Shown here piece after piece: positions 11,374 through 36,867 of a DNA stretch of 64,000 nt. Position numbers and translations under genes: made by a program. Origin of the DNA: Caldithrix abyssi DSM 13497 (GTDB lineage Bacteria > Electryoneota > AABM5-125-24 > Hatepunaeales > Hatepunaeaceae); contig CAMBDS010000003.1 of the NCBI GenBank assembly GCA_945865405.1, positions 143,436 to 207,435 on the forward strand. Reading direction: 5' to 3'. The notes under the pieces were generated by a model, which saw only the letters and a program-made list of their open reading frames with translations, was not told where the DNA came from and did not search any database. Position 1 is the stretch's first letter; each line of letters opens with the position of its first letter.

Positions 11374-14300
11374 TTACTTAATGCAGACTACCTTCATCCG
11401 ATGCGTCACTCCGCCAGCCTTGAATTGCACGGCATAGACCCCGGAAGGCAGGTCAGTCGCGTCGAACGTCAGCTCATGCCTGCCAGCCTGCTTGAAGTCG
11501 TTCGCCAGTCGCGTCAGCATCCTGCCGTGCAGATCATAGAGCGCCAGGTCGATGTTTCCCGCCGCGGGTAGTTCATACGCAACCCGGAACGACGCATTGA
11601 ACGGCGATGGATATGCCGAAAGCAGTGCCGCATTAACTGGCAGAATATCGCTCCCGTCGTGAACCTCCAGACCAATGACGCGCAACGAAACCGGTATCAC
11701 CAGCCGTTCACCAGCCGCGTTATGGGTAATGATAACGTCACCGGTGACCGTCCCTGAATCGAGTCCCGCCGTGTTCAATTCGATGATAAACTGGCTCGAA
11801 CTGTCTGCCAAAATTAACCCGCTCTCCTGCCGAAGTCCAAGCCATGTCGTCACGATCCCCAACTGATAAACGTCGATGTGGTCGCCGCCGTGGTTGTTCT
11901 GCATATCGTCTTTCAAAACAACCATCGACCAGTCGTAAACCGCGTAATCAGGGCTGATGTCAAGCCCCATCGGAGCCTCCGGTTCGTTCGGGATAAACTC
12001 CGAAACGTACATCGTATCGCTTCTGCCCGCAAGCGAGTATTTGTGTAGCAGTGACCTCGGGTTGTTCAAACTGTCATTTGCGGTGTGGAAGACGTAAAGG
12101 GGAAAGTCGTCGGGATCGTTGGGCCAGTACCCCAGCCCCGTGATCTGGAAACCGCGCTGACTTAATACGGAAAAGACCTGACCCGCCCGGTTACAGCCGT
12201 AAATGCCGTTATTCCTCTGCGATCCACTCACCCAAAGCAATTCACGTACAGGATCCCAGGCTATACCGACATTTTCAGCGTAAGGCCCAATAAACTGGCG
12301 CTGGATTCGACCATGTAGATCGAATCCATAGATGTTGCGCCCGCCGGCACCCCAAAGCAGCTCTCCGTCCCACGCAAGGTCTGGCATCGGCGCCATCAAT
12401 ACACCCGGCTGAGGGAAACTATCGACCAGTGCACCTCGCTCGTTAAACTCATAGAGTAGCGGCGTCCGGCCATCGTATCGTCCAGTCGCATAGAAGCGGT
12501 CACCAACATGCGCCACGCCGACCAACCCCAAATCGCCCGCCCGCCTTGCCGCCGGAAAACTGAATCTGCGATGGCCAATAGGCTCGCCTTCTCCTTCGAC
12601 GATCTTTTCGGCTTCCCACCTGAGCGGCCCGTTGCCTTCATTGTGCATCTGCAGTTCTATCAGCTCGGCTTCTCCGGCATCAAGAGTGCGCTCAATATCA
12701 TTAGCTGGGATCGAGAATTCGGGATGTGTCAGGCTGAAATCGACCGTGACGGTGTCGTTATGTTCAATGGCAATCCCTTCGCGTGACTGCTCGTTCCAAC
12801 CCTGTCCCTCAGCAGTAAGGATATAGCCTTCGCCAATCGCCAGATCGAGATAATAAAAACCGGCATTATCCGTGACGGTTCGCCCTCGCCGGTTGGCTTT
12901 GACGGTCACTCCGCTCGCTCCACGGCCTGTCTCAAGATCGGTCACTCGGCCTTTGGCAACCCCGGATAACACCTGCAACGTAGGCGAGAAGGTAATCGCC
13001 ATCCTGTCAGCAATCTCGCGCGCTCCGGCCGGGTATTGCGCCCAATAGGTGTATTCCAGCCCGCCGTCGTCCTCGAGGTTACCGATGCCGATCATGCAAA
13101 ACGGCAGGTCATTATGTGCAGGACGATTCTCGTTGGTGATGTCGAGGTATTGGAACGTGATAACCCCGTCACCGCTCGGCGTCGGCAAGGAGCTTTGGGC
13201 ATAGAGAATAATCTGGAAAGTTTCAGTTGCGCCCTGCCTGTCGTTCTCCAGCAGTCGCTTCATGCCACTCCACTCGATGATGAACTTGCCGCCGGCTTCG
13301 TCGTAGTAATAGTAAATTCCCGATCCGTTGGGCGTCACCAGATTGTCCCACCACGGGCAGAGTTGAGCGGAAGGTCCGAGCGCCTGTCCAACGTGAGTTT
13401 TCCGAAAATCCGCCAGTTCGCTCTGGTCTCCGAACGCCGCCCAACCATTCGTGCAGACGGTTATCTGGTCGAACTCTTCACCGTAGTACTTGAAAGCAAA
13501 CGGCAATTCGATCATCCGGCTCTTATCATCGTTGTCGCCGGTGTCGGTAATGTTAATGCGAGTTCCTTCGAAATCGCGACGCTGAGCATTCGGGTCGATC
13601 TCTATCCAGTCATAATCAGGAGCCATTGCCCACGATGTATCGTAGGAATCGAAACAAAGGTAGCCATATTTGTCAGGCCCGAACGGATCACGTAAGCCCG
13701 GTCTGCCAACCGTAATCATCGCCGAAGCGGTTGTGCTGGTATTATCGTCAAAGTCGATTTGCATTTCGAGCGGGAACTGCCGTCCCGGGACGATGTTGTT
13801 GTTCGTCGAGATGCGGAAGGGCTGGCTGATCTCCCACTGAGTGTCGCCGATGTCGAGGCCATCATAGCTTGCCTGATTCTGATGCACCGTCAAGTCGCGG
13901 TCGCGGCTGATCAACGTGGCCGTAAAGCCGACCGATGGGATTGAGCCGAAGTTGCTTAAGGAGTAGGAAATGTTACGGATGTCACCAGGGTTTAAGATCC
14001 CGCCGCCTTCGACTTGTAGCGCACCGACGGTGATGGCGGTTGCTCCGCTGACAGGTTCGATTGCCGAGACCCAACGTCTATTCCCGACGAATAAAGTTAT
14101 CTCGAGGCGATGCTTCACAAGGTCTGGGCAATCGGGGGTGACGCTGATTTGGTGGTTGACCTCAATGCTCTCGCCCGGTGCAGGTGCTTCACCCAAGTAG
14201 ATCGTGTCAGCCACAACATCGACCCACGGGGACATTGAAGCGATTTTGATCCCAATTCTTCCGTCGATTTGATCCGAGCCGCTGTTCACAACGGCAAAAG

Positions 14301-16344
14301 TCAACTCCACAACCTCCCCCGGGTTCAATAACCCATCTCCATCCCCATCCTCTATCCACCAATCATCGACTCCAAGAAATTCCACACGCTCCACAACGTC
14401 AGCCGAACCGAGATAAGGCCTGACGTTGTGCTTGGTGACGGTCACGAGAATCTCGCCTTCGCTCATTGCATTGGGGTCAAAGGAAAATTCAGCTATGCCG
14501 TCAGCGTTAGTGTAGGCTATCTCGTGGAGTTCATCACCCTTGTAAAGGCATACCAGTGCCGCTTCGACAGGCCCGCCATCTTCGTCGTCATTGGTGACCG
14601 AGACTGCATAGTGACTCTGCCCGATAGCAAGTGTGGCAGGATGGTCAACCTCTATCCGCGTCGGCAGTCCCGTCCAAAGGTGGGTTCCGGCGTCGCCCAT
14701 CAGATTGTTCCACTCCATGTGGGTAAGGAAATTGTTGTCGAACCCGGAGTAGGCTCGCCATAGCTCAAACTTACCAGCATTCAGCCCCCAACCGAAGGCG
14801 AAAAGATCGTCCTTGTAGATGCCTTTCCAGACGCCGCCAGCAACCAGATTGTTGTACTTGACGTTGGTGTTGGGTGTCGCAGTACCTATCGCCCCTACTG
14901 CCCCGAAGCGAGCGCGCAAGAAGTGCTCGGTATGGCCGTCCGTCTGCTGGGTGAAGTTTCCCGTTTCACAGGAGATCGCAAGGACAGCTGGCCAACGACC
15001 ATCAATGCCGGGAAGGTTGTCGATCACATTGACATTCAGGTTGTTCATCAAGTGAAACGCCCGGTAATGAAGTACGGAAATCCCCCAACGGAACCATTCG
15101 GCGAGAAAAGGCTGCTCGCCTCGTGCGTCGCCATTTTCAGGCCAGAAATACCCACGAACTTCCGAGAAGCCGAGGTTGTAGAGTTCCTTCCTGACATATT
15201 TGGCGACAAAGACTTCCGATATTCCGTTGATGCTGGAGCCTGCGACGACTCCACCATGCAGAAACCACTCTTCGTTGCCATCGAACGGATCAGCCTCGTA
15301 GGTAATAAGTTTATGCACAATCGTGTTTAACTCGGCGGTAGTTCGGCAGCTAAGTCTCCCGATAGCGAGATCGGCAAGGGCATCGTTGCCTTCTTGCAGA
15401 GTATATCCCCAATCCCCCTGTTGTGAGTAAGCTGGAATGTTGAATTCCCCGCGGGATGCGTCGCCGACGAGAGTGACAAACTCAACCGGCGGTTCAGCTC
15501 GATAAGCGTCGCGAATGATCGGTGCAATGACGTTCTGGTTGGCGTTGTTGGCCACGATAGTGACCACGACTTTGTGCCCCTGACGGCGACGCCACTCGAG
15601 CAGAGGCTGCATTGCGTCAATTGCACCTTCGTGATTGGGGATGATGTAGAGGTAACTGCCGGAGAGTTCGTTGTCGCGAGGTGGAGGTGGTGGGTTATCG
15701 ACGAGCGAGTTTAACAGCTTGTAGGCGTAGCGCGACGGACGTGGTCGGGCGGCATCTTCAACCGGATTGACTTCGTCGCCCTGGTATTCGAGCCGGAAGT
15801 CGAAGTTGTCATTATGGCGGACTTCACCGGTCGCGAGATTGACTTGCTCAGGGAACATCGTAACAGTGACGATCCTGTAACCCCGCATGATAGCTGGTTC
15901 GCCGATGATGACCTTTTGCTCGGGCCAGAAGCCGTCATCACCGGTCTCAAGCAACGTCTGCATCGCGTTATTGGCGTCAAGACCCGTCACCACAGACCTG
16001 AGAGTTCTCTCAAGACGGCTGTCGGCCTTGACATTCGCCAACCTGACCCCTCCCGTTGGGGGGATCAGCAGATTGCGCGAAATGAACGGTACCTCAGGCT
16101 TGTCATTCTGAGTAATAGTTGCAAAGCCGGGGATAGCCTCCGCCGCTTCGAGCGAGTTCTCGAACTCGAAGACCTCGGCTGGAATTTTCGCCTGGATGTG
16201 AAGGAATTGCGGCGTCGATTCGAGGATCTGTAACGATCCGGGGCTGACCGATTTCTCAAGTCTCTCTGCGGCGCCGATTGACGACGCGACGGATAATATT
16301 GCAATCCCTATGAAATATGCCACGCGTGAGCGCATCTTTTGCAT
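11374..16344 (-). CDS. Giant gingipain (peptidase C25)-like T9SS-secreted protein, paralog 1 (1656 aa)
   Basis: Signal peptide. C25-like core (YLYIIPNHEGAIDAMQPLLEWRRRQGHKVVV; VTLVGDAS; WPAVLAISCETGNF). Ig/CARDB-like repeats. GPDKYGY...NGW..F module. CarboxypepD_reg-like domain (GRVTDLETGRGASGVTVKA). Propeller-like repeats (LAWDGELLWGAG). T9SS C-terminal domain (YPSPFNASFRVAYEL...YDLHGRML...GVYAVQFKAGGVTHRMKVVCIK). Confidence 0.85.
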   Translation of the reverse strand: MQKMRSRVAYFIGIAILSVASSIGAAERLEKSVSPGSLQILESTPQFLHIQAKIPAEVFEFENSLEAAEAIPGFATITQNDKPEVPFISRNLLIPPTGGVRLANVKADSRLERTLRSVVTGLDANNAMQTLLETGDDGFWPEQKVIIGEPAIMRGYRIVTVTMFPEQVNLATGEVRHNDNFDFRLEYQGDEVNPVEDAARPRPSRYAYKLLNSLVDNPPPPPRDNELSGSYLYIIPNHEGAIDAMQPLLEWRRRQGHKVVVTIVANNANQNVIAPIIRDAYRAEPPVEFVTLVGDASRGEFNIPAYSQQGDWGYTLQEGNDALADLAIGRLSCRTTAELNTIVHKLITYEADPFDGNEEWFLHGGVVAGSSINGISEVFVAKYVRKELYNLGFSEVRGYFWPENGDARGEQPFLAEWFRWGISVLHYRAFHLMNNLNVNVIDNLPGIDGRWPAVLAISCETGNFTQQTDGHTEHFLRARFGAVGAIGTATPNTNVKYNNLVAGGVWKGIYKDDLFAFGWGLNAGKFELWRAYSGFDNNFLTHMEWNNLMGDAGTHLWTGLPTRIEVDHPATLAIGQSHYAVSVTNDDEDGGPVEAALVCLYKGDELHEIAYTNADGIAEFSFDPNAMSEGEILVTVTKHNVRPYLGSADVVERVEFLGVDDWWIEDGDGDGLLNPGEVVELTFAVVNSGSDQIDGRIGIKIASMSPWVDVVADTIYLGEAPAPGESIEVNHQISVTPDCPDLVKHRLEITLFVGNRRWVSAIEPVSGATAITVGALQVEGGGILNPGDIRNISYSLSNFGSIPSVGFTATLISRDRDLTVHQNQASYDGLDIGDTQWEISQPFRISTNNNIVPGRQFPLEMQIDFDDNTSTTASAMITVGRPGLRDPFGPDKYGYLCFDSYDTSWAMAPDYDWIEIDPNAQRRDFEGTRINITDTGDNDDKSRMIELPFAFKYYGEEFDQITVCTNGWAAFGDQSELADFRKTHVGQALGPSAQLCPWWDNLVTPNGSGIYYYYDEAGGKFIIEWSGMKRLLENDRQGATETFQIILYAQSSLPTPSGDGVITFQYLDITNENRPAHNDLPFCMIGIGNLEDDGGLEYTYWAQYPAGAREIADRMAITFSPTLQVLSGVAKGRVTDLETGRGASGVTVKANRRGRTVTDNAGFYYLDLAIGEGYILTAEGQGWNEQSREGIAIEHNDTVTVDFSLTHPEFSIPANDIERTLDAGEAELIELQMHNEGNGPLRWEAEKIVEGEGEPIGHRRFSFPAARRAGDLGLVGVAHVGDRFYATGRYDGRTPLLYEFNERGALVDSFPQPGVLMAPMPDLAWDGELLWGAGGRNIYGFDLHGRIQRQFIGPYAENVGIAWDPVRELLWVSGSQRNNGIYGCNRAGQVFSVLSQRGFQITGLGYWPNDPDDFPLYVFHTANDSLNNPRSLLHKYSLAGRSDTMYVSEFIPNEPEAPMGLDISPDYAVYDWSMVVLKDDMQNNHGGDHIDVYQLGIVTTWLGLRQESGLILADSSSQFIIELNTAGLDSGTVTGDVIITHNAAGERLVIPVSLRVIGLEVHDGSDILPVNAALLSAYPSPFNASFRVAYELPAAGNIDLALYDLHGRMLTRLANDFKQAGRHELTFDATDLPSGVYAVQFKAGGVTHRMKVVCIK

Positions 16345-16589
16345 GATCTCTCTCGATTCTGAGTCATAGTCTTCCCGTTATCAGCTATTGAGGTAACGGG
16401 GTTAAACTCATTGATTTCGGTAATTTTCGCTTCAATCGAATCCTTTATTCCGCATGGTTAAGGCGTAACAGGATTAAAATACGAACTCCAGACCTGCAAA
16501 AATACTTCCAAGTCGTTAAATAATTTTTCTGGCTCGATTTTTGAGGTGCGAGTATGGTAAAAATAGTTCGTCTGATCCTGGGCAATCTC

Positions 16590-16618
16590 TTGACAGAAGG
16601 GCAGATCTAAACTATCTT
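16590..16618 (+). promoter_or_regulatory. Sigma-70-type promoter upstream of the methyltransferase-like pair
   Basis: TTGACA (16590-16595), a 17-nt spacer, then TATCTT (16613-16618). Confidence 0.35.
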
Positions 16619-16712
16619 TAAGACGGTTCGGAGTCTCTCAACCAAGCAAATCGGGACGCACATCTCTCTCCAGAAGCCGGTTCGGCTCGACATAGGTTGC
16701 TCATATCACAAG

Positions 16713-17844: not shown

Positions 17845-17907
17845 GGCAATTTATTTTGCAATACAAGATTGAGATTTTGAATTTACTTAGCTACTCAGGA
17901 GGAAGAA

Positions 17908-20900
17908 ATGTGCTTTCATGCCAGATATTTGTTGATTTTTCTGGTGGTAGTTTTCTCGATAATTAAAGGCGTGGCTTTCGCTGTCGAAGTTCAGGGAGAT
18001 GTGCAGGGAGAGTGGACGCTTGAAAATTCGCCTTACATTGTAATTGACAATGTCCGCGTTCCTGCCCAACGAAATCTGACCATCGAGCCAGGTGTCGAAG
18101 TTCGGTTTAATGAAGCGTTGCGACTTGTGGTAAACGGGACAATAACGGCCGTCGGAAATGAGGATGCTCCTATCACATTTACATGGAATCATGAAGAACA
18201 AATGTGGCGGGGGATAAGAGTTATCGGGTCGAATGGTGAAAACACATTTCAATTTTGTCACTTCTTCCATAGCCTACAAACTGACAACTATCCGACAACT
18301 GATTCACGTGGCGGCGCACTTTATGGCGAGAGATCAAATGTTATCGTCAAAGATTGCCTTTTTCAGTTCAACAAATCGAGCGGAGAAGGTGGCGCTGCCT
18401 GCCTTTATAATTCTACGGGTGAGTTCACAAGAACTAACTTTATTGAAAACTTTGGTTACACGGAAATTGTCTGGCTTGAGCAATGCAATATCCCAGTTAC
18501 ATATTGCCTATTTGCAGACAATACAGGCAATTACTGTGCTGGACTTGAGTTTGAAGGTGGCGATGCACCAATTGAAAACAATGTCTTCGTCCGCAACAGA
18601 TCTATAGATATGAATTGGGGCAACGGTATCTATCTTGTTCATGGTGCCCGGCCTATTGTGCGAAATAACTTGATTGCTGATAATATCGGCGCCGGGGGGA
18701 TGTTTATCGGCTACGACGCTGAACCGCAAATTTTCTCCCAAAATACGATTATCAACAACACCGGCAGATGCGGCATCTTCATGGTGAATGGCGGTCGTCT
18801 GAATGCTGTTGACTGCATTATCCGCGATAACCAAGGCCCGGACATTGAGCTTTCCAACGGGAGTGCTTCTATTAGCTACTCCAACATTAGCCGAGTCGAT
18901 GGTTTCGATGTTGGCGAAGGAGTTATCGAAGATGACCCCCTCTTTACTGACCCCGAAAATGGTGACTACAGCCTCCAGTTAGAATCTCCCTGCCGCGATA
19001 CAGGTGACCCCAACTCCCCCGAAGACCCCGACGGAACTCGCGCCGACATGGGCGTTTTCTTTTCGTTGCCTGCACAATTCGAAATTTCTCGCGACACGAT
19101 CCTCTTTGAACCGGTCGGAATTGGCGGTCGAGCCGTCGAAGAATTCCAACTCGAATACCTCGATGGCGCTCATCGCGAGATTTTTCTCCAATTCAGGCCC
19201 GGCGAAGAAGACGATTTCTTTTTCGTAAGCCCTGGTGAAGAGACTATTGAGTTGGGCGATATACTCGACCTCAGTGTGATCGTTCAACCAGCTCGGGGAG
19301 ATGCAATCGGTGTCAGACACGGATCAATCGAAATCTTCTATGACGAACGACCAAACCCGTTTATTTTCATTCCGGTCGAATGTACAATTGTCGAAGGCTA
19401 CGGTCGGATTTACGGGCAGGCTATCGACGCTCAATCGATGAGGCCCGTTCCCGGAACAAGACTGCTATTGGAAGGCTTCCCTGAACATCCCTACGAAATA
19501 CTTGCTGATGAGAACGGAGAAATCGATCTTCCCAACATACCTTGTTGGAGCTATCTGGCTACAATCACCCACCCCGATTTCCAGACAATAGTCTCTGATT
19601 CGATTTTCCTCCAACCGGGCGAGGAGCTTGAATTAGACATGTTGCTCCGGTATTCTGCCGCAGTAATAGACATTGAGGAACTTGCTGTCGAAATCGAGGT
19701 AGATCACGATACCACCCGTCAACTGACACTGGGCAACACTGGCAGCGCCGACCTAACGTTTAACGTCAGCGTCACTTTTCCAGAAGTAGAAGATTTAGAA
19801 TATCTCGCATTGACCGAAACGGTCGGCATCGAGCAACTTCTTCAAGACTCACGCATCCAGGGGCTGGAAGTTGTCGGAGACAAACTTTACGTCTGCGGTG
19901 GCAACAATGGCGAAGGAACAGGTAAGGTTTACGTGCTTGATACTGACTATAATCTTCTCGAAGAGTTCTATCAATTTATGCCATCCAATTTCGGATTTCG
20001 TGACATGACGTGGGATGGGGAGTTACTTTGGGGTATAGATCAGGGGATCGTTTTTGGCTTTACTCGCGAGGGCCAGCTACTTCATCAATTTGACAGTCCT
20101 GCTGTTCCCGGTCGAAACATTACCTACGATATGGAGCAGAACCTTTTCTGGATCTCGGACGTTACTGCCGACTACTTTTCTGTAGATCGTGGAGGAAATG
20201 TGACTCAACGGATCCAACGTCCTGCTTCGAGAGTTTACGGGATCTCTTGTCTGCCTTCCGACCCTGACAGTGCCAGGCTCTACCTCTTTGCCAACGACCC
20301 GGGCCATCCCCACCAACTGAATAAGCTCAATACTGAAACCGGAGAAGTGACCTTAATTGGGGACCTCGATGCGGGAGGCTCAACCGCAGGAGCGACCTCT
20401 TTTTCAAGCAACTGGTCTCCGATAAATCTTCAATTTGTCGCTCTGTTGAAAAACGGGATCGATGGCGATGGTAACGACCAGATCGGTTTCTTTCATTTGG
20501 AAACACGAAAGGAATGGATAAAAGTCTCGCCAATGGAAGGCTTTGTCGCACCAGCCGACGAGTTCAACCTCGAGCTGACCTTCGACGCGACGAATTTCTC
20601 GGTGGCTCGCCTAAACGCGCTGGTGAATATCGCTCACAATGGACGTGGCGATACGTTGACAGTGCCAGTGGAGCTTACCATCCGACCCAACGACGTCGAT
20701 CGCTTCGACCCTCGTGCAGACATTCCCTCGAAATTCGCTCTTCATGCCGCCACCCCCAACCCGTTCAACAGCACGACTACGATCCGATTCGACGTGCCTG
20801 CGACGAGCGAAGTGTTGCTTCAAGTCTTCGACCTGCAAGGCCGTGTAGCGAGAACTCTGGTCAGCGGTAGGCGTCAAGCGGGCGTCTATCAAGCGATCTG

Positions 20901-20991
20901 GGAAGCTGGCGATGCTCCCGCCGGAACGTACATCTGCCGCATGGAGGCGGCCGGGTTCCAGAAGACTGTGAAGCTGATGCTGGTGAAATAG
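17908..20991 (+). CDS. Right-handed parallel beta-helix protein with propeller-like tail and T9SS sorting domain (1027 aa)
   Basis: AGGAGG SD, then a signal peptide. Beta-helix turns (IVKDCLFQFNKSSGEGGAA; IENNVFVRNRS; IVRNNLIADNIGAGG; FSQNTIINNTGRCG; CIIRDNQG). The tail is homologous to the C25 paralogs (MTWDGELLWGID...). The C-terminal domain reads TPNPFNSTTTIRFDV...FDLQGRV...GTYICRMEAAGFQKTVKLMLVK. Confidence 0.85.
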   Translation: MCFHARYLLIFLVVVFSIIKGVAFAVEVQGDVQGEWTLENSPYIVIDNVRVPAQRNLTIEPGVEVRFNEALRLVVNGTITAVGNEDAPITFTWNHEEQMWRGIRVIGSNGENTFQFCHFFHSLQTDNYPTTDSRGGALYGERSNVIVKDCLFQFNKSSGEGGAACLYNSTGEFTRTNFIENFGYTEIVWLEQCNIPVTYCLFADNTGNYCAGLEFEGGDAPIENNVFVRNRSIDMNWGNGIYLVHGARPIVRNNLIADNIGAGGMFIGYDAEPQIFSQNTIINNTGRCGIFMVNGGRLNAVDCIIRDNQGPDIELSNGSASISYSNISRVDGFDVGEGVIEDDPLFTDPENGDYSLQLESPCRDTGDPNSPEDPDGTRADMGVFFSLPAQFEISRDTILFEPVGIGGRAVEEFQLEYLDGAHREIFLQFRPGEEDDFFFVSPGEETIELGDILDLSVIVQPARGDAIGVRHGSIEIFYDERPNPFIFIPVECTIVEGYGRIYGQAIDAQSMRPVPGTRLLLEGFPEHPYEILADENGEIDLPNIPCWSYLATITHPDFQTIVSDSIFLQPGEELELDMLLRYSAAVIDIEELAVEIEVDHDTTRQLTLGNTGSADLTFNVSVTFPEVEDLEYLALTETVGIEQLLQDSRIQGLEVVGDKLYVCGGNNGEGTGKVYVLDTDYNLLEEFYQFMPSNFGFRDMTWDGELLWGIDQGIVFGFTREGQLLHQFDSPAVPGRNITYDMEQNLFWISDVTADYFSVDRGGNVTQRIQRPASRVYGISCLPSDPDSARLYLFANDPGHPHQLNKLNTETGEVTLIGDLDAGGSTAGATSFSSNWSPINLQFVALLKNGIDGDGNDQIGFFHLETRKEWIKVSPMEGFVAPADEFNLELTFDATNFSVARLNALVNIAHNGRGDTLTVPVELTIRPNDVDRFDPRADIPSKFALHAATPNPFNSTTTIRFDVPATSEVLLQVFDLQGRVARTLVSGRRQAGVYQAIWEAGDAPAGTYICRMEAAGFQKTVKLMLVK

Positions 20992-21022
20992 TTTTCACGG
21001 CCGCCTAGCTGTCAAAACATTG

Positions 21023-21048
21023 TAGGGGCGCATTGCAATGCGCCCCTA
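21023..21048. terminator. Perfect 26-nt palindrome between convergent genes
   Basis: taggggcgcattgcaatgcgccccta is its own reverse complement. It lies between the 20991 stop (+) and the 21072 stop (-). Confidence 0.6.
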
Positions 21049-21071
21049 TTCATTTCTACGTATTGCCCCCC

Positions 21072-21926: not shown

Positions 21927-21950
21927 TGAAGACTTCAGATAGCGCCAAAC

Positions 21951-22010
21951 TAATTCGCAATTCGTAATTCTATCATTACATTCGTAATTCGTAATTCGTA
22001 ATTCGTAATT
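21951..22010 (-). repeat. Heptanucleotide tandem repeat (AATTACG)n
   Basis: The minus strand reads ATG-(AATTACG)x4-AATGTAATGATAG-AATTACG-AATTGCG-AATTAG. The four perfect copies are at 21983..22010. Confidence 0.85.
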
Positions 22011-22012
22011 CA

Positions 22013-25622: not shown

Positions 25623-25624
25623 CT

Positions 25625-25710: not shown

Positions 25711-25736
25711 GTTTAGCTGAAGCGAGCATCAGATGT

Positions 25737-29000: not shown

Positions 29001-31538
29001 GGACAATCGGAGCGTGACCTCGGTGAAGCGATTGTCGTGCCGCTCGGATTCACCACCCAGTTTTATGGTCGTGAGTTCGACACAATTACCGTCGCCTCGA
29101 ACGGTTTTATCACGATGGGTAACCACCCACGAATGACCAACCATCACAACTATCCGCTCGATTCTGGAATCGGCGGCGTCGGGATGATTGCTCCTTTCTG
29201 GGACGACCTCCGGTTTAACCAAAACTCGCGTATCTTAATTTATCGGGACCGGGAAGACAGCCGGACTATCGTCGAGTGGCACCGTCTCAGACCTGCCACC
29301 GGAGATGCTGACTTAACTTTTCAAGCTATCCTATACGACAAAGATGTCTGGATCACCCAGTCTGGCGATCCGAACATTCTCATCCAGTACAAGGCTGTCA
29401 GGGACTCAATCGAGAATATCCGTAATGGCGATGCTGCCGAAACGACCAATAACCCCTATGCCTCTGCCGGTATCTGTAGCCCCACCGGCGAAACCGGCAT
29501 CAACTACATGTCCTTCAATCGTTATGCTGTCGGTGCAGCTCCCCTTGAGCCGAACAGAGCCCTGCTATTCTCAACTTCCGTCAAGTTTAGGGCGGGTATC
29601 CTTTATGGCAGGGTTACTGACGCCGCTACCGGTGAGGGCATCCCCGGAGCGACAGTCTATACAAAACACGGATTTGTGGCGACCACAGAAGATGACGGCT
29701 ACTGGCGAATTGCCGAAGCCTTGGCCGACATTCTCTTCGACATTACAGCTCACAAACAAGGCTATAACGACTCAACTTTCTTGGCAGATGTTGACAGCTT
29801 GATTATCCCGGAGGGTGATTCTCTCGAAATCAACTTTGACTTGTTGCATCCCGAGTTCTCCCCTTCGACTTACGACCTGTCAGCACGGCTTGACCCCAAC
29901 CGCTCTATCGATATTGGATTTTCCCTCTTCAACAGCGGCAACGGACCAATGGATTGGACCGCCGACAAACGACTCCTCGGCGATGCAAACGCAGAGCCTT
30001 GGCAATTAAGACGCGCTTACAATGTCAGCGACACGGTCGAAGACCTTCGCATCGAAGGCGTCCTCTTCGCCCAAGAGATGTTCTTTCTTTCTGGCGCGAA
30101 CGAAGCTGCAAACGTAGATGATAACCTTATCTACAAGCTTGATCGTGATGGAGCTTTGATCGATACATTCCTCCAAACCGGTTCATCTCGCTACGGCTAT
30201 AAGGATATGGATTGGGACGGCGAGTACATCTGGGCGGTTGGTCAGGACAGCGTTTATGCCTTAACGACTTGGGGTGAGGTAGCAATAAGATGGGCTCTGC
30301 CAATGCAAAATCCAGCCCCATACATCGCTTACAATTCGGACGATGGAATCCTATATATCAGCGGGACAACTTCCAATATCTTCCGCTTTGACAGGGACGG
30401 CAATCGTCTTGAAGGCGACCTCGACAATCTCGAATTAAAGACTTATGGTCTCTCTTATTGGCCCGAAGACCCAGATGGGCACAATCTTTACATCCTGAAC
30501 AAACCAAGTAATATAGAAAATCGTACAGTAGTCACCAAAATGGATGTCAACACCGGCGATACGCTTTCCGCCTTCGAGATTCCCCAACAGGAAGGATCAA
30601 CTGGCCAAATCGGCGGCTGGATAACCAACGAGTTCGACGTTTACAGCTGGGTCTTCATGAGTCTACAAAACGTTTCCGCCAATGGCGGAGGCGACAAATT
30701 GCAGATTCATCAGCTTGACGCACGCAAGGATTGGATGAACCTCGATGTCTGGGGTGGCAGGTTGGAGACGGGTGAAACACAGGAATTGGTGCTGACCCTC
30801 AACTCAGCAGCCCTTCCCGACACCTTATTCCAAGGCGAGATATTCTTCGTCCACAATGCCGATAGCGGTGTCGCTCATATCGCCATTTCACTCGATGTTA
30901 TCGGCCCCGAAAGGCCTTCCAATTTCGATCTGCTGACTCCTGTCGATGGTGACACTTTGCGAGCCCTCCCGTCACGAGCCGACTCGCTTCGATTGGCTGA
31001 ACTCCGGTTCTCCTGGATGCCGTCGTTTGACGCCAACTTTGACGATAATGTAACCTATATCCACTGCCTGCAAACCGGTGACCAAAAAGTCAGCTTTGCC
31101 GTCGCTGATACTGCCAATACCTTAAGCCTCGATACACTCGATCTGCCACTCTGGTTTGACACCCCGTTGATCTGGTGGGTGCAAGCCGTCTCCGGGCAGG
31201 ATACTGTCGAGAGCAACGCCCGGTTTACGTTGCAGATCGTCCCCAACAGTCTTGACCCGGTCGAAGTGATCCCTGTCGAATTCGGTTTACAATCAGCATT
31301 CCCGAACCCGTTCAACGGTCGCACCGCCATCCGCTTCGGAGCTGATCTTCGTCAGCAGACGACGCTAATCGCCTACGACCTCGCCGGACGTGAAGCCGCC
31401 CGGCTCTTCGATGCTGTACCCGAAGTAGGCTACCACACCGTTGCCTGGAATGCCGACCGACTTCCAACCGGAATTTATGTCCTCCAATTGAAGTCAGCCG
31501 GACGGACAAGAGTTGCTAAACTCGCTCTAATTAAGTAA
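26055..31538 (+). CDS. Giant gingipain (C25)-like T9SS-secreted protein, paralog 2 (1827 aa), catalytic Cys apparently absent
   Basis: GGGAGAG SD, then a signal peptide. C25-like core (YLVIAHESLLRFAGTFIEWRRKAGYKVDL; VLTIGDRSG), but FPFRLNASGHGEWS at the Cys strand. GPDKYGYICFD module. CarboxypepD_reg-like (GRVTDAATGEGIPGATVYT). Propeller-like repeats (MDWDGEYIWAVG). C-terminal domain FPNPFNGRTAIRF...YDLAGRE...GIYVLQLKSAGRTRVAKLALIK. Confidence 0.85.
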   Translation: MRATILLTLMLLVTTIAFGSPSFEQNATISRAKLLASSPTSVKISYDLAEINPETVEIEGAELSSFSLPGEGVIVQNGMPALPGISRYVVIPPKSAVELIVTEDGTPRRTRAENPPLLTNEPSIGEPTVFPNEGGLFPPNMAELSEPIVVRGVRCVLVTIYPIQYDLNSGEYVHHQNLQAEVRPCDGEVINPVIFPERRGRSREFLKMISLFAINGDEVGRDDPDRDALPRYNGHYLVIAHESLLRFAGTFIEWRRKAGYKVDLLSVPNGNATDDSWILARIREKYNAYLNAGQDPFEYVLTIGDRSGYYEMGNPGAVLESPQGANVFGAKHGDWLYGCVEGNDEVPDIATGRWPGGNSDLVGLMVGRTLAYEATPDMEDPSWFTRGGAVSQHWGNSQETAYHVTNPSMVRWGESVLRNLNYRDIRTHELLNWDQYGRESGPVFRRLLNDGANAVLARSENYFWCTRNPQRNYFDQDIQTNTSFPFRLNASGHGEWSAEMEFRTGSTNQLRGWVAVTFSWNGPLTGASTSLWSDEVQAVMLHDLPLGWGYSYAQAHIPANIHNDGMMPYYRTDHNFFGDPGLKHWRGVPREVEIEGPASISTKTRLVEVVVHQPDSDTPVANAIVSFYAPGNIPAFDNAGYATYTRMWVKNTRSDADGIARVVLESTDTLINQTNLFVTVTGPDIVPCFHQARIGAQNSLVELRTVGYQEEQGNGDERLNPGEAFSVSLSAQNLGQDVAPGTVATISTFSEYIEVIGENTITFDDIAAGETNAGNSSVVLSILPHCPDALARPVLKPSIKVEFTSDDNVWKSAFNLDVWAPHLEFRSVVGGIEIPDSATSINVEIANIGRVNSGAIAVDLHSMGQGVTVIDGSSTFPAIVPGRTARLDGGPFDISGNKVVVPGSRSPLYMVFATESGFVDTSFFELQIMHPRTRAPIGPDKYGYICFDNTDTLWDNAPVYDWEEINPNDQQCEFEGSALNFRGQSERDLGEAIVVPLGFTTQFYGREFDTITVASNGFITMGNHPRMTNHHNYPLDSGIGGVGMIAPFWDDLRFNQNSRILIYRDREDSRTIVEWHRLRPATGDADLTFQAILYDKDVWITQSGDPNILIQYKAVRDSIENIRNGDAAETTNNPYASAGICSPTGETGINYMSFNRYAVGAAPLEPNRALLFSTSVKFRAGILYGRVTDAATGEGIPGATVYTKHGFVATTEDDGYWRIAEALADILFDITAHKQGYNDSTFLADVDSLIIPEGDSLEINFDLLHPEFSPSTYDLSARLDPNRSIDIGFSLFNSGNGPMDWTADKRLLGDANAEPWQLRRAYNVSDTVEDLRIEGVLFAQEMFFLSGANEAANVDDNLIYKLDRDGALIDTFLQTGSSRYGYKDMDWDGEYIWAVGQDSVYALTTWGEVAIRWALPMQNPAPYIAYNSDDGILYISGTTSNIFRFDRDGNRLEGDLDNLELKTYGLSYWPEDPDGHNLYILNKPSNIENRTVVTKMDVNTGDTLSAFEIPQQEGSTGQIGGWITNEFDVYSWVFMSLQNVSANGGGDKLQIHQLDARKDWMNLDVWGGRLETGETQELVLTLNSAALPDTLFQGEIFFVHNADSGVAHIAISLDVIGPERPSNFDLLTPVDGDTLRALPSRADSLRLAELRFSWMPSFDANFDDNVTYIHCLQTGDQKVSFAVADTANTLSLDTLDLPLWFDTPLIWWVQAVSGQDTVESNARFTLQIVPNSLDPVEVIPVEFGLQSAFPNPFNGRTAIRFGADLRQQTTLIAYDLAGREAARLFDAVPEVGYHTVAWNADRLPTGIYVLQLKSAGRTRVAKLALIK

Positions 31539-31648
31539 ATTGTCATAAGAATATGCTTAGCGGCAAGCATCCCTGATTTGACGCGTAAGAATCCCCGCTA
31601 ACGATACGTCGAGCAATCGACGCGTCGATCCTGAAGCTTGTGATCCTT

Positions 31649-31680
31649 CTGCGCCCATCAGGTTAGCCTCATGGGCGCAG
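31649..31680 (+). terminator. Hairpin between the tandem C25 paralogs
   Basis: ctgcgcccat-(12 nt)-atgggcgcag. It lies 110 nt after the 31538 stop and 100 nt before the 31783 start. No U-tract. Confidence 0.35.
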
Positions 31681-31782
31681 TCACGTATGATCCAAAGTGT
31701 ATGCACTGCCGGATCACCTTTATTTATTCCGGAGTTACCTGACCGTAATTCCAATTCACCTGAAATCAACCGTCAAAGAGTA

Positions 31783-34700
31783 ATGCGCACAACTACAATT
31801 TCCTCGATCATAACCCTTTTCTTCGCCGCGACGCTATCGCTCGCTTCTGCATCTGCCGATTCCCAACCAGGCGCTCTTGAGCGTTTTGCCCCCGCAGCGA
31901 CCTTCGATGTCTCGAGCAGCGCCTCTAGTCTCGACCTTCGTATCGAAATCGAATCGGGGGACGCATCGAAGCTATTGAAAGAGGCGAGTCTCCAATCTTG
32001 GGACGGCTCACTTCCCGAAGCGCTCATTCGTTGGGTGGTTTTGCCGGATCACGGAAATGCCGAAGTTCACGTCAGCAACGTCGAAGCTACCCGCTCCGGT
32101 GAATCGTCGAACGATTTGCGGTCTACCCGGTTGAGTTCATCCGAGTTGAGCCAATTCACGTCGCTCGGTGCCCCCCAGACAATGCGTGGCATCCGGATGG
32201 TGCCATTGGCAGTAAGGTCGATGATCGTTGACAGCAAAGGCAAGACAATCGTCGCCAGCCGCCTCGATGTACAGGTTGAGTTTACGGGTGGTCAAGGCTT
32301 AAACGAGGTTGTCCATCCTTCACCAGTCACGGAAGGGTTCGCAAGTCTTATCCGCAACATGACCCTTAATCCTCCTGCAGAGTTTCCGCACCGCGACCCT
32401 GCCGCCGCCTATTCTTCGCGAATGTTGATCCTTCGACCTTCATCTCTTGCAAATCAAGCCGCCCTAAACAGCCTGAGCGCCTTCGCCGACTGGAAGCGTC
32501 AGCAGGGATTTGAAGTCACCCTGACCAGCGTAAATACCGCCAATACAACTCCTGTCCAGATCCGTGACCTTATCAGCGACGGCTACCCCGAAGATCCCTA
32601 CGACTATGTCCTGATCGTCGGCTGGTACTACTCATATTTGGATACCCTTAGGCCCGACGCAACCCTGGAATTCCCTGCGTTTGAGGTGGAAGACGATGAA
32701 TCCATACGTCCCGGTGACCTTTTCTATGCTACTCTTGACAACGAAGGCGATGAGACCGACGATTGGCTGCCTGATGTGATGATCGGACGAATGGTCGCTC
32801 ACAGTCCTGCTGACCTTCAAGCAGTCCTCAACCGCTCTATTCGATACGAGAGAGATCCGTATTCAGGTCCAAATGGTGATGGAGCTTGGTATCATCGAGC
32901 AGTTCACTGCGAAGATGGCGTAGATGCCGATTCATTGCTCAAGGATTCAGATTTCGAAATGGCTCGTTGGGTTGGTAATTTGCTCGCCAGAAAAAGTATG
33001 ACTACCTCTGTTTATATGGGCGGCAGGAATGATACTGAAGCAGATGAACGTACATCGCTGGAGGAAGGAGTCTCGATCGCTTCAGCCGATGGTTACCTCT
33101 TTGGAATGGCAGTAGGGACAGATGAAGGCGATTGGGACGAGGCCAACACAGGGAGGATGCATCCGTTTGTTATTGCCAATGCACATTACTACGACTATCC
33201 ACGGCTATTCCCGTTCTTCAGCTCAGGGACACTAAACGATCCCAACGGACCCATTGGTGCTGTAGGATTTGCCTTTGGCCATTGGGATCGCATATCGCGA
33301 CCCTTTGTCGCTGGCGCTCTCAGGGCGATAATTAATGGCGACGACAAAACCATTTCTAACTTCTGGTTGGGTAGCGCGCTCAACGTAATGGGAAATTTGG
33401 TGACAATACATCCTGACAGTTCGCTTGCCATTTTAGAGTTGAAACAAAAATTGTCACAAGTAATCATGCTGGGAGATCCGACCGTAAATCTCTTTCTCGA
33501 TCTTCCAAAAACACTTGCCACCGACTTGCCGGAAACACTCTACCCCGGCACCACGGTTCTCGCTTTCAAGTTGACTGATGCAGATAACCAGCCCGTCTCC
33601 GGTGCAACCGTCGCAATCAGTCAGTCTAATCGCATACACCTCGTCGCGTGGACAGATGAATCAGGTAACGTCGCGATCTCCATCCCCAACGGAATCGCAG
33701 AAGGAAACGTTCAGTTGACCGTTAGCAAGCAAGGCTACCAGCCGGTCTTTCTTGCAAACTTGCCCGTCGAATATCCCCCGGTCAATCTTGTCCTGCAAAA
33801 TTTTACGCTCGATCCCGACCCGCTTGTCAACGGCACCTCCTCAGCATTGGGTTTGACCATCGAAAATGATGGTGAAAATGACGCAGAGGAAGTCGATGTC
33901 GAATTCAAGTCCGACTCACCGTTCCTCACTTTCTCGCGCAACAGCGCGGCTCTCGACAATATCGCATCGGGTGAAAATGGCGGGCTCTCCTCGGAGGTCA
34001 ATCTGATTCTCTCGCCTTCCTGCCCCGGCGGGACAATCGTTCAAGTCTTGCTCAACATGTCCTCCAGAAATGACGCCTGGCAAGCCGCTTTCGAGTTCAC
34101 CACATCAGGTCCTCATTACGATGCTCCCTCCGTAGTCGTCTATGAAAATGTCCGCCCCGGCGCCGAAGGAACAGTCTCGCCACGACTCGTCAATAGCGGC
34201 GACCGCGCCGGAATTGCCCTCAATGCGACGCTTGTCAGTCTGACCGAACATGTCAGAATCGTGGAGGGCAACCGTAATTACGGTGCCATTGCCACAGGCG
34301 ACACAGGTATGCCCAACAGCGCCTTCAGAGTCGCAGTCGATACGCTCTTCGTTCCGGGACAGTGGGCTGAGTTTGAGCTAAGGCTCACCGGCGAAGGGAA
34401 CGTCGCCACCGCCCTTCGATTCCGCAAAGTCATTTCCCAAGCCGATGTCAACGACCCGATAGGCCCCGACAATTACGGCTACTACGCCTTCGATAGCCGC
34501 GATGCAGGCTGGGCACAAGCCCCGACATTTGATTGGATCGAAATCAATCCCGATTACGAGGCTGGTAACGACTTTGATGGCGTTCGACTCGATCTTCAAG
34601 ACGAAGGTGATCGAGGCGGATCATCGACGCTTATCGATTTGCCATTCTCATTCAGATACTACGGCAAGGACTACGACCAGCTCGTCATCTGTTCGAATGG

Positions 34701-36867
34701 TTGGGTCTCATTCGATACTCTGTCCCTCGATTATCACAGTCCGAACAATGAAGGAATGCCCGCGATTGGCCCGGCTCCCGATGCCCAACTCGCTGTCTGT
34801 TGGCAGGACATTTTCAATTTTTATCCTTGGAAAAACGGTATCTACACCCATTCAGATACAGAGAATGGCATAGTTGTGATCGAATGGAGCGACCTTCAAT
34901 TGGAGCAAGCCCAACAGGTTGCCGATTCTGCTCAGTTTCAGATAATACTTTACGATCCCGCCAAGTATCCGACTCGCACTGGTGACGGTGAAATCAAGTT
35001 TCAATACCGCCGGTTCAGCGAAGTCAGTGGCAAGGTCGATTACCACTGGTACTCTACCATCGGCATCCGTAACCCAGACGGAACCGACGGTATCCAGTAT
35101 CGCCACGCCCTTGGCTACAATGAACTTGCCAATCCGGTCGAGAACGGCTTTGCGATAATGTTCACTCCCTCGCTCTCGAATACTTATGGAACCGTGAGCG
35201 GCAGGTTTGCGAGGCTTGAAAACCAACAATTGGCTCTCCCCGACGTTCAGATATTCAGCTACCGGGGTATCGACGTTGTCAGTGCTCAGGACGGAAGTTT
35301 CCAGTTCTCCGCCCGCCCGGGACATTACGAAAACGTTTCCGCCACCCTCCGCCATTTCAACGACATGACGCTGACGTTCGATGTCCGTGAAGGCGAAGTG
35401 ACCAATCTCGGCAACCTCCTGATGGTTCACCCCGAGATCTCCCAAGTCCCTGAACGCGTCACGACAGGTCTTCAGCCCGGCTTCCCGACCCAACAACCGG
35501 TCTTTTTCAACAACTCAGGCAATGGCCAGCTCGACTACACAACATCCATTGTCCGTGCAGATGGTCAACGGGCAACCTTTGAGATCCTCGACACCTTTCG
35601 CATCGGCACTATTCTTGGTGATAACTCTACGACCTCGCCTGTCTATGTTGATCAAGTGCTCTTCTTTCCTCGCAACAACGGTGGCAATGGCGCACAGGTT
35701 ATGACTGCTGTCGGCCTGAACGGTGCGCGAACTGGCGAGGAAGTGCCACTTCCAGGGCGGGATTCGCTGGATGCTATTCCGCAAAGTGTCACATCGGACG
35801 GAGCTGATTTCTGGGGAAGTTTCAGGTATTTGGATAGCCCCGTTAATGATATTATCGAATTTAATCGTCAGGGTGCTATACAACGGCGCTTTATTTCCCC
35901 TTTCAATAGTCAGACCATTAATGCTATCATTACGTATTCCCCTGCTCGAAATTCGCTCTTTGCCATCCAACCCGAAGATGAGCTAATTGTTGAACTTGGT
36001 TTGGACAGCGCCCATTTTGGCGAGATAATCAACAGTTGGGAAGTCTCCTTCCCTACTGAGGAATTGATTCCCACGGGCATTGGCTGGAATTCTTACGACA
36101 CAGATAATATGCCCCTCTATCTTATACTCAAAAATTGGGCAACGCTCCCAGATGGTGTTCGCGGCCAACGTATTGTTCGCTTCGATCCCGAGTCAGGGAA
36201 TTTCGAAATTTTCACCTATATTAGAAATATCAACCTGCCAACAGTCGATGGAGTCGATCGCTCCAGCTTCGGCCTTGCCTTCATTCCGGGCCATAAAGGC
36301 GCAAACGTCGCAATGGTTCTTAACGAAAATGTGAACCCCGTCCGCAACGACATCCTCAAAATCGTCGAAATCGGCCCCTACGTCCCCTTTGTCTCTGGCA
36401 GATTGATCCATACCCCCGGCTCAGTTCCCGCCGGAGGCCAAGGCTTCTTCACCATTCCGTTCGACGCGACCGGGTTGGAGGAAAGCGACTACTCCTTCGG
36501 CGTCAAGCTCTTCCACAACGCCCTCGGCGACAGCGTCTTCATTCCAATTACCCTAAATGTCAATGACACCAACGGTGTCGGCGACGATCCAGTCACCCTC
36601 CCAATCGATTTCGGCATCACCAGACTTTACCCGAACCCCTTCAACTCACGCATCGGCATCGACTTTGTCATGCCCATCGGTGAGAGGTCTGTCCTCAAGG
36701 TATTCGATCTCGCAGGTCGTGAGGTCGCCACCCTCTTCGACGGTCGCTCCGTTAGCGGCAGCGAGAGGCTCTTCTGGGACGCCGCCAATTTCTCGACCGG
36801 CGTCTATATTGTCAGGCTTGAGTCCGGCGACCGGGTCGTCACCCGCAAAGCCGCCCTGATCAAATAG
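31783..36867 (+). CDS. Giant gingipain (C25)-like T9SS-secreted protein, paralog 3 (~1694 aa), catalytic Cys apparently absent
   Basis: I prefer the start at MRTTTISSIITLFFAATLSLASA (31783) over the track start at 31687. C25-like core (MLILRPSSL...FADWKRQQGFEVTL; VLIVGWYYS), but HPFVIANAHYYDYP at the Cys strand. GPDNYGYYAFD module. C-terminal domain YPNPFNSRIGIDF...FDLAGREV...GVYIVRLESGDRVVTRKAALIK. Confidence 0.85.
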   Translation: MRTTTISSIITLFFAATLSLASASADSQPGALERFAPAATFDVSSSASSLDLRIEIESGDASKLLKEASLQSWDGSLPEALIRWVVLPDHGNAEVHVSNVEATRSGESSNDLRSTRLSSSELSQFTSLGAPQTMRGIRMVPLAVRSMIVDSKGKTIVASRLDVQVEFTGGQGLNEVVHPSPVTEGFASLIRNMTLNPPAEFPHRDPAAAYSSRMLILRPSSLANQAALNSLSAFADWKRQQGFEVTLTSVNTANTTPVQIRDLISDGYPEDPYDYVLIVGWYYSYLDTLRPDATLEFPAFEVEDDESIRPGDLFYATLDNEGDETDDWLPDVMIGRMVAHSPADLQAVLNRSIRYERDPYSGPNGDGAWYHRAVHCEDGVDADSLLKDSDFEMARWVGNLLARKSMTTSVYMGGRNDTEADERTSLEEGVSIASADGYLFGMAVGTDEGDWDEANTGRMHPFVIANAHYYDYPRLFPFFSSGTLNDPNGPIGAVGFAFGHWDRISRPFVAGALRAIINGDDKTISNFWLGSALNVMGNLVTIHPDSSLAILELKQKLSQVIMLGDPTVNLFLDLPKTLATDLPETLYPGTTVLAFKLTDADNQPVSGATVAISQSNRIHLVAWTDESGNVAISIPNGIAEGNVQLTVSKQGYQPVFLANLPVEYPPVNLVLQNFTLDPDPLVNGTSSALGLTIENDGENDAEEVDVEFKSDSPFLTFSRNSAALDNIASGENGGLSSEVNLILSPSCPGGTIVQVLLNMSSRNDAWQAAFEFTTSGPHYDAPSVVVYENVRPGAEGTVSPRLVNSGDRAGIALNATLVSLTEHVRIVEGNRNYGAIATGDTGMPNSAFRVAVDTLFVPGQWAEFELRLTGEGNVATALRFRKVISQADVNDPIGPDNYGYYAFDSRDAGWAQAPTFDWIEINPDYEAGNDFDGVRLDLQDEGDRGGSSTLIDLPFSFRYYGKDYDQLVICSNGWVSFDTLSLDYHSPNNEGMPAIGPAPDAQLAVCWQDIFNFYPWKNGIYTHSDTENGIVVIEWSDLQLEQAQQVADSAQFQIILYDPAKYPTRTGDGEIKFQYRRFSEVSGKVDYHWYSTIGIRNPDGTDGIQYRHALGYNELANPVENGFAIMFTPSLSNTYGTVSGRFARLENQQLALPDVQIFSYRGIDVVSAQDGSFQFSARPGHYENVSATLRHFNDMTLTFDVREGEVTNLGNLLMVHPEISQVPERVTTGLQPGFPTQQPVFFNNSGNGQLDYTTSIVRADGQRATFEILDTFRIGTILGDNSTTSPVYVDQVLFFPRNNGGNGAQVMTAVGLNGARTGEEVPLPGRDSLDAIPQSVTSDGADFWGSFRYLDSPVNDIIEFNRQGAIQRRFISPFNSQTINAIITYSPARNSLFAIQPEDELIVELGLDSAHFGEIINSWEVSFPTEELIPTGIGWNSYDTDNMPLYLILKNWATLPDGVRGQRIVRFDPESGNFEIFTYIRNINLPTVDGVDRSSFGLAFIPGHKGANVAMVLNENVNPVRNDILKIVEIGPYVPFVSGRLIHTPGSVPAGGQGFFTIPFDATGLEESDYSFGVKLFHNALGDSVFIPITLNVNDTNGVGDDPVTLPIDFGITRLYPNPFNSRIGIDFVMPIGERSVLKVFDLAGREVATLFDGRSVSGSERLFWDAANFSTGVYIVRLESGDRVVTRKAALIK

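Follow-up and report, generated by a model that had tools for sequence, protein, structure and literature searches.

Three giant gingipain-like proteins with altered active sites in Caldithrix abyssi DSM 13497, two of them encoded as a conserved gene pair

A stretch of 64,000 nucleotides from Caldithrix abyssi DSM 13497 (GenBank assembly GCA_945865405.1, contig CAMBDS010000003.1, positions 143,436 to 207,435 of the forward strand; hereafter the window) encodes three giant proteins whose N-terminal heads are true homologs of the gingipain prodomain and catalytic domain (MEROPS C25). They are referred to here as P1 (11374..16344, -; 1656 aa), P2 (26055..31538, +; 1827 aa) and P3 (31783..36867, +; 1694 aa). 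The canonical catalytic His of the gingipains is absent from all three, and the catalytic Cys is present in P1 only. Taken as a whole, the evidence leads us to favour, with moderate confidence, a reading in which all three are multidomain proteins anchored on the cell surface, with P2 and P3 as pseudo-peptidases encoded as a pair and P1 perhaps supporting a Cys chemistry of a non-gingipain kind.

Paralogy and gingipain homology

An earlier reading of the window, made without database searches (the sequence-only reading), had described the three proteins as collinear paralogs, and both the list of open reading frames (ORFs) and BLASTP bear this out. Each pair gave one collinear, nearly full-length alignment, with identities of 27% for P1 and P2 (E 7e-157), 25% for P1 and P3 (E 3e-108) and 23% for P2 and P3 (E 4e-65). 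The longest ORF of P3 opens at an in-frame ATG at 31687, upstream of the signal peptide; its start was placed at 31783 because the signal peptide begins there and an identical 1694-aa protein occurs in public assemblies. The exact P1, P2 and P3 protein sequences are recorded in independent assemblies (ENA, Logan and NCBI), and they are therefore not assembly artefacts.

The proposed C25 homology was likewise confirmed for all three proteins. Against Pfam Peptidase_C25 (PF01364, cut-off 23), P1 scored 99.8 bits (E 2.6e-28), P2 57.6 bits (1.7e-15) and P3 98.4 bits (6.7e-28), with P2 on its own covering just profile positions 1-157. A profile of 36 P1-like proteins matched mature RgpB (3.5e-50), Kgp (1.6e-32), both gingipain prodomains (~1e-26) and PorU (6ZA2; 1.3e-11), and the P1-like core profile matched PorU residues 546-786 at E 5e-22. 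The P2-ortholog profile matched the RgpB prodomain (2.9e-16) and mature RgpB residues 7-374 (2.2e-11), and the P3-subfamily profile matched RgpB at 4.2e-25.

The fold of the P1 head was judged from the sequence profile alone, and those of P2 and P3 from AlphaFold2 models searched with Foldseek. The P3 head model (pLDDT 80.3, pTM 0.83) matched RgpB with a TMt of 0.66 (E 4e-15) and Kgp with 0.63. The P2 head model (pLDDT 64.5, pTM 0.67) matched the RgpB prodomain with a TMt of 0.71 (E 2.6e-11); for the catalytic domains of RgpB and Kgp, TMt was 0.36-0.52 (E 1e-7 to 1e-8), with RgpB at 0.50-0.52. According to these predicted structures, the gingipain fold is kept in both heads, as the sequence-only reading had supposed.

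Placement of the His/Cys dyad

RgpB residues 7-374 were rebuilt from alignments, with E152, D163, H211 and C244 confirmed on the expected letters. The dyad columns were placed by four methods, namely phmmer/hmmsearch against RgpB, a MAFFT L-INS-i alignment of 173 cores (RgpB and 172 family cores), hhalign, and the strand ends assigned by DSSP in the AlphaFold2 models, and the residue columns were consistent across the four.

The His column (H211) of P1 holds Phe430 and its Cys column (C244) holds Cys459 (VLHYRA[F]HLMN ... AIS[C]ETGNF). This active-site stretch, VLHYRAFHLMN...AISCETGNFTQ, lies at 14947..15075 (-), with the codons of R428 at 15061-15063, F430 at 15055-15057, H431 at 15052-15054 and C459 at 14968-14970. 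A phmmer comparison of P1 with RgpB reproduced the Phe430 and Cys459 columns, and the family profile set 'nYRGyl' on 'NYTGHG' and 'liTCnTGdf' on 'DVACVNGDF' of RgpB.

The corresponding columns of P2 hold Glu460 and Ser491 (AVLARS[E]NYFW ... RLNA[S]GHGEW), within a site, NAVLARSENY...FPFRLNASGHGEWSA, at 27411..27548 (+) (codons of R458 at 27426-27428, E460 at 27432-27434, S491 at 27525-27527 and H493 at 27531-27533). Searching with the P2-ortholog profile in hmmsearch set Ser491 on C244, and hhalign paired R458, S491 and H493 with the family Arg, the Cys and the Thr of CxTG, respectively (prob 99.2%); the His column of P2 is filled by Glu460 or read as a gap. The GHGEW string of P2 was considered as a counterpart of the gingipain His motif (YTGHGSETAW), by which P2 would have retained the His and lost the Cys, and rejected. 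The ortholog profile, MAFFT and hhalign all place this strand at the Cys strand, and the Arg458-Ser491 spacing of 33 residues, equal to that of H211 and C244 in RgpB, likewise speaks against such a counterpart.

P3 has Tyr438 in the His column and His468 in the Cys column (IASADG[Y]LFGM ... IANA[H]YYDY). Its site, VSIASADGYLFG...HPFVIANAHYYDYPR, spans 33070..33204 (+), with the codons of D436 (family Arg column) at 33088-33090, Y438 at 33094-33096 and H468 at 33184-33186. H468 is the MAFFT assignment; hhalign (prob 99.6%) puts D436 and Y438 in the Arg and His columns, and CxTG against a four-residue gap, so that the Cys column is a deletion. In the models, the dyad-column residues stand 2-4 positions past strands 454-458 and 486-489 of P2 and 432-436 and 462-464 of P3, the position expected for a clan-CD dyad. 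The His of the Y-x-[GA]-H-G motif is thus absent from P1 (F430), P2 (E460 or gap) and P3 (Y438), and Cys occurs in the C244 column of P1 (C459) but not of P2 (S491) or P3 (H468 or deletion).

These placements refine the residue calls of the sequence-only reading. The strings it had quoted (WPAVLAISCETGNF, HYRAFH, FPFRLNASGHGEWS and HPFVIANAHYYDYP) are all found in the proteins, and its active-site strands were correctly assigned, with Cys in the C244 column of P1 only. For P2 it had proposed a change from Cys to Gly; the loss of Cys stands, but Ser491 rather than Gly492 occupies the column (the alignment requires a one-residue gap). Its change from Cys to His in P3 agrees with H468 in the MAFFT alignment and not with the hhalign gap. 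The upstream catalytic His that it had seen in HYRAFH of P1 did not survive: Phe430 fills the H211 column, and His431, one residue past it, is unconserved in orthologs. P2 and P3 lack both dyad residues, as had been claimed, and an ortholog alignment shows these losses to be conserved; none of the alignments placed a Cys/His dyad in the active site of either protein.

P1 and the majority state of the family

An exhaustive search with the P3 head among 50%-identity representatives returned 1,052 relatives at E<=0.001, and most of the top 150 are 1,200-1,900 aa long. A word-index homolog search with the P3 core gave 2 weak matches only, and a related-locus search of species-representative genomes with P3 alone gave two distant loci only, in Ignavibacteriaceae and Bacteroidales. 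The family sample comes from the single P3-seeded search, and site states were counted in the 161 cores with letters in both the His and Cys columns. An aromatic residue (W/Y/F) in the His column together with Cys was the most common state (94/161), and another non-His residue with Cys was found in 16. Only 10 cores had the canonical His and Cys. Glu accompanied by Ser, Cys or Ala, the class that includes the P2 clade, accounted for a further 16, and 25 cores outside the P2 type were without Cys.

The 94 aromatic/Cys cores share an Arg two positions ahead of the His column (94/94), where RgpB has Thr209, followed by Gly (92/94), and the Cys is invariant (94/94). A T-x-T-x-x-N-N loop is 85-94% conserved among them. 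P1, with R428, F430, C459, T493, N498 and N499, is typical of this large family of ~1,700-aa proteins, which has the motif "YRG[W/Y/F] ... TCxTG", an invariant Arg and Cys, and no canonical His. A universal alternative His was sought in the 126 Cys-bearing cores and none was found; the best candidate, the His of a 'T-H-T' loop, is present in 79 of them, and this loop corresponds in the alignment to residues 286-288 of RgpB, close to the S1 pocket. In P1 and its closest ortholog the column holds Asn (N494 in P1, 14863..14865, -), with a His instead beside the canonical column.

P1 had been suggested to be a real protease or a PorU-like sortase. In favour of a conventional enzyme of either kind, using C459 with H431, the Cys stands in the right column and His431 immediately follows the catalytic His column; in the closest orthologs, P0017 and P0018, a His is found two positions beyond that column. 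The His column itself is nevertheless occupied by Phe. The next position, that of His431, reads Gln in P0017 (the closest ortholog, 53% identity) and Tyr or Ile in other orthologs, and varies across the 94 cores, while Y-x-[GA]-H-G is retained by RgpB, Kgp and PorU alike. Against the PorU model NF033707 (cut-off 420 bits), P1 scored just 16.4 and P3 19.6, with no match for P2, and the giant cargo-type architecture of P1 is unlike that of PorU. We therefore regard a conventional P1 protease or sortase as very unlikely. To judge from its residues and its PorU-model score, P1 can be counted neither as a canonical gingipain nor as PorU-like; a working site of uncertain chemistry is suggested by the invariance of its Cys and Arg.

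In the reading that we favour, the clan-CD dyad is not kept in the giant family, and the window holds three states of the site. P1 represents the majority state, in which Arg-Gly-aromatic replaces Thr-Gly-His around an invariant Cys; Cys chemistry would be possible, though not by the gingipain or PorU mechanism. As a separate observation, GC content is 0.53-0.55 across P1 (10001..16000), compared with 0.48 in the stretches on either side, at 16-20 kb and 8-10 kb.

Remodelled and eroded sites in P2 and P3

P2 has orthologs at 38-54% identity, which are assigned to Calditrichota or Electryoneaceae where they are named. All 15 members of its clade have the Arg, Glu as the residue of the His column, a His two positions past the Cys column and the Glu that follows; R458, E460, G492, H493, G494 and E495 are found in 14-15 of the 15. 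The Cys column itself holds Ser in nine, Cys in four and Ala in two, giving the fixed subfamily motif R-A-E ... [S/C/A]-G-H-G-E. The G-x-G-[DE]-aromatic pattern after the Cys is ancestral (VNGDF in RgpB), and E460 and H493 are the newly fixed residues; H332, D334, Q392 and H393 are fixed elsewhere in the domain. This pattern of conservation marks the P2 site as an apparently remodelled, selected surface rather than a product of decay. P2 has thereby lost both the aromatic or His residue and the need for a Cys, and has fixed a new motif. The earlier description of P2 as a pseudo-protease consequently needs qualification: the dyad is lost and the fold kept, but a site that is almost invariant is not simply that of a dead copy.

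P3 presents a different picture. In its clade (n=23), the Arg column holds D, E, N or Q, and the Cys column N (five members), E (five), L (three), S (three) and others; hardly any residue of the core is invariant other than Gly, Pro and Trp. The fold of P3 is thus maintained around a site that has eroded, and Arg, His and Cys have all been lost with no conserved replacement. A neighbour-joining tree rooted on RgpB, without bootstrap, showed the P2 and P3 clades each to be contiguous and the P3 clade to adjoin a Cys-bearing clade with the pattern 'SRGW...ITCLS'.

The loss of the dyad, with a new motif in P2 and no replacement in P3, argues that both are pseudo-peptidases. No peptide bonds would be cleaved by their heads, for which a role in binding or as a scaffold, on a stalk of Ig-like repeats, is most likely.

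The main competing explanation is that the sites have been rewired rather than retired, with P2 using Ser/Cys491, His493 and Glu460 on the old site and P1-type proteins acting as Cys enzymes through Arg428 and/or a displaced His. Several observations favour this explanation and weigh against our own. The near-invariance of R458, E460, H493 and E495 (15/15 each), together with Ser or Cys in the nucleophile column of 13/15 members and the conserved polar residues H332, D334, Q392 and H393, fits a functional, possibly catalytic site. The invariant Cys and Arg of the P1 type likewise argue for chemistry of some kind; T493, N498 and N499 are conserved in a loop aligned to the pocket region of RgpB, and the 'T-H-T' His of the 79 Cys-bearing cores could be a displaced general base. 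The reading that we favour is further limited by the P2 model, which falls below a pLDDT of 50 exactly at residues 479-494, and by the P3 seed, which biases the proportions of the family states; the binding or scaffold role is one that we infer. On the other side, two members of the P2 clade have Ala in the nucleophile column, and a natural headless protein occupies the P2 position in a related contig (L005, described below). The ancestral origin of the G-x-G-[DE]-aromatic pattern leaves just H493 and E460 as new, and rewiring cannot apply to P3. We consider the rewired-enzyme explanation unlikely overall, although it is the strongest of those weighed against pseudo-peptidase heads in P2 and P3.

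Domain architecture and predicted export

The order of parts is the same in P1, P2 and P3: signal peptide, gingipain prodomain, C25 core, Ig-like repeats, NIDO-like module, CarboxypepD_reg, tail and the C-terminal domain (CTD) of type IX secretion system (T9SS) cargo. The signal peptides were read straight from the sequence, and module boundaries were taken from a three-way alignment of the proteins. The prodomain of P1 (aa 1-225) lies at 15670..16344 (-) and that of P2 (aa 1-230) at 26055..26744 (+), the latter above the Propeptide_C25 cut-off (26.9 bits). The P1 core (aa 226-560; 14665..15669, -) is defined by Pfam C25 and the P1-like family profile, and the C25-like cores of P2 (aa 231-588; 26745..27818, +) and P3 (aa 209-574; 32407..33504, +) by Pfam C25, the ortholog or subfamily profile, and AlphaFold2 with Foldseek. 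CarboxypepD_reg is above the Pfam cut-off in P1 and P3.

The NIDO-like module lies at 12985..13704 (-) in P1 (GPDKYGY...PWWDNL), 28842..29573 (+) in P2 and 34438..35166 (+) in P3. It is the best-conserved module among the paralogs (GPDxYGY ... FWDD), with 31-40% identity in the three-way alignment versus 23-27% for the C25 core. P2 alone scores against Pfam NIDO (PF06119), at 25.0 bits (equal to the cut-off of 25; E 2.1e-5) and over profile positions 2-56; P1 and P3 gave no match to that profile, their modules being 31-40% identical to each other and to that of P2. The conserved module of ~235 aa noted in the sequence-only reading is thus present in all three proteins and can now be called NIDO-like, on a Pfam match in P2 only and at the cut-off. 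Likewise supported in each protein were the signal peptide, propeptide, C25 core, Ig repeats, CarboxypepD_reg and T9SS domain of its description. Its label of 'propeller-like' for the tail was not confirmed, as neither Pfam nor PDB gave a match to the tail and comparing its profile with itself revealed no internal repeats. The tail is 473 aa long in P2 versus 360-389 aa in P1 and P3, making that of P2 ~100 aa longer. The additional segment of P2 (aa ~1620-1741; 30912..31277, +) sits immediately ahead of the CTD and gave no Pfam match.

The CTDs lie at 11377..11634 (-) in P1, 31278..31535 (+) in P2 and 36607..36864 (+) in P3. TIGR04183 (cut-off 23) scored 30.5 for P1 and 35.2 for P3, and 22.6 for P2, which is 0.4 bit short; the P2 CTD is 41% identical to that of P3 (E 2e-18). 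T9SS type A cargo (TIGR04183/PF18962) is recognised by a signal peptide and an extreme C-terminal sorting domain; P1, P2 and P3 have both, the CTD of P2 being borderline by score. All three proteins would be exported by Sec and the T9SS and displayed on the cell surface, probably being anchored there after CTD cleavage by analogy with T9SS type A cargo. Present in every copy and conserved best is the NIDO-like module, and after it come CarboxypepD_reg, the tail and the CTD.

The P2-P3 gene pair

P2 and P3 lie on the same strand, separated by a 244-bp spacer (31539..31782, +) in which no terminator-like site was found. The same tandem order, P2 then P3, was seen again in three related metagenome contigs (L008, L007 and L005). 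In L008, a 1827-aa P2 ortholog with 54% identity (IGRAENY ... TSGHGEW) stands directly upstream of the P3 ortholog P0024, and in L007 a P2-like gene stands upstream of the P3-like P0030. L005 (ENA ERZ27250635 k141_1574263) encodes in the P2 position, at 6102-9608 (+), a 1168-aa T9SS protein without a C25 head, which is 40% identical to P2 residues 1173-1618 (E 5e-93); on the contig an MFS gene lies upstream of it, matching the window, and the P3 ortholog P0025 follows. This natural headless protein is an argument for placing the essential function of P2-type proteins in their C-terminal modules.

Subfamily members are 25-54% identical yet keep a length of ~1,650-1,830 aa and intact ORFs. P2-P3 is an old conserved gene pair and not a recent duplication. 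The two proteins probably act together.

The same evidence bears on whether P2 and P3 might instead be pseudogenes or duplicates in decay, lacking a function of their own. Loss of the dyad in both would be in keeping with decay, as would the P2-like gene of L007, which is called as two ORFs. However, the P2 and P3 ORFs are intact at 1827 and 1694 aa, with identical proteins in independent assemblies; orthologs at 36-54% identity keep both length and architecture, the subfamilies comprise 15-23 clusters at 50% identity, and the gene order is conserved. Decay of the pair is therefore barely credible. The L007 gene itself (4364-9875, +; ENA ERZ24794644 NODE_502) is called as overlapping ORFs of 411 and 1437 aa, with the split inside the C25 core, which points to an assembly error or, in that genome, to a frameshift or pseudogene.

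A bolder proposal would have the gingipain fold rewired family-wide, with the widespread 'YRG[W/Y/F]...TCxTG' heads acting as Cys enzymes in the absence of the clan-CD His, a new Glu460-His493-Ser/Cys491 centre on the old site in the P2 subfamily, and P2-P3 forming a two-protein surface machine. If true, this machine would join one remodelled catalytic or ligand-binding head (P2) to one inert partner head (P3). We think this combination quite unlikely, and retain P2 and P3 as paired pseudo-peptidases.

Neighbouring genes

A fourth probable family member lies at the left edge of the window, where 1..402 (-) encodes a signal peptide and a prodomain-like region before running off it. The sequence-only reading had already noted a related N-terminus here; the support for it is weak, with an hhalign alignment to the family prodomain (prob 88.8%, E 2.5e-6) and a Propeptide_C25 match below its cut-off (E 0.0024).

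The window is rich in T9SS cargo. Large secreted right-handed beta-helix/NosD repeat proteins are encoded at 17908..20991 (+), 54062..58078 (-) and 62236..63780 (-), two of them with T9SS sorting domains. Between the beta-helix T9SS gene at 17908..20991 and the P2-P3 pair, 21072..24286 (-) holds a TonB-dependent receptor with an N-terminal CarboxypepD_reg, then a DUF4249 protein. An M28 peptidase with a PA domain (8469..10934, -) and an S8 subtilase (41690..43363, -) look like conventional peptidases by Pfam match, unlike the C25 heads.

Significance and comparison with known systems

ORFs with a C25 'gingipain' domain are routinely counted as extracellular peptidases in estimates of protein-degrading potential for sediments and uncultured phyla; in one example, C25 is listed among the abundant secreted peptidase families and Calditrichaeota are cited as protein degraders (PMC6365825). 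In our P3-seeded and hence biased sample, just 10/161 cores had the His/Cys pair and about a quarter had no Cys. Domain-level annotation therefore overstates the proteolytic capacity of these proteins, and genes like P1, P2 and P3 should not count as ordinary proteases. One genome here offers a natural series of Cys-only, remodelled and eroded sites, with a headless relative elsewhere, that can be used to follow the fate of a protease fold after loss of the protease. Our literature searches found nothing on C25 pseudo-peptidases or on the giant family of P1, P2 and P3.

The closest known relatives are RgpB and Kgp (PDB 1CVR, 4IEF, 4RBM). As in the window proteins, their prodomain precedes an alpha/beta catalytic domain, an Ig-like domain comes next, and a T9SS CTD is present. 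P1 further resembles RgpB in keeping Cys in the C244 column. In contrast to RgpB and Kgp, P1, P2 and P3 have no canonical His, P2 and P3 have no Cys, and the invariant Arg of the family replaces Thr209 of RgpB. The haemagglutinin/adhesin domains are replaced by ~1,100 residues after the head (CARDB/Ig-like repeats, NIDO-like module, CarboxypepD_reg and tail), and the host belongs to a non-Bacteroidota environmental lineage. The T9SS sortase PorU (PDB 6ZA2, NF033707) shares a C25-type catalytic domain, but retains the dyad motif LLNYAGHG...TATCD and differs from P1, P2 and P3 in architecture; its Cys/His dyad (PMC10202324) and its C690 (PMC5121618) have been described.

Comparable dyad losses are known from the pseudo-orthocaspases of cyanobacteria and alphaproteobacteria (clan CD, C14), in which Tyr and Ser replace the His and Cys, and fold and gene have long been conserved (PMC6426788). 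These proteins belong to family C14 rather than C25, are small and intracellular rather than giant and secreted, and have no paired-gene arrangement. With Tyr in the His column of P3 and Ser in the Cys column of P2, they are nonetheless the closest analogy for the dyad losses described here.

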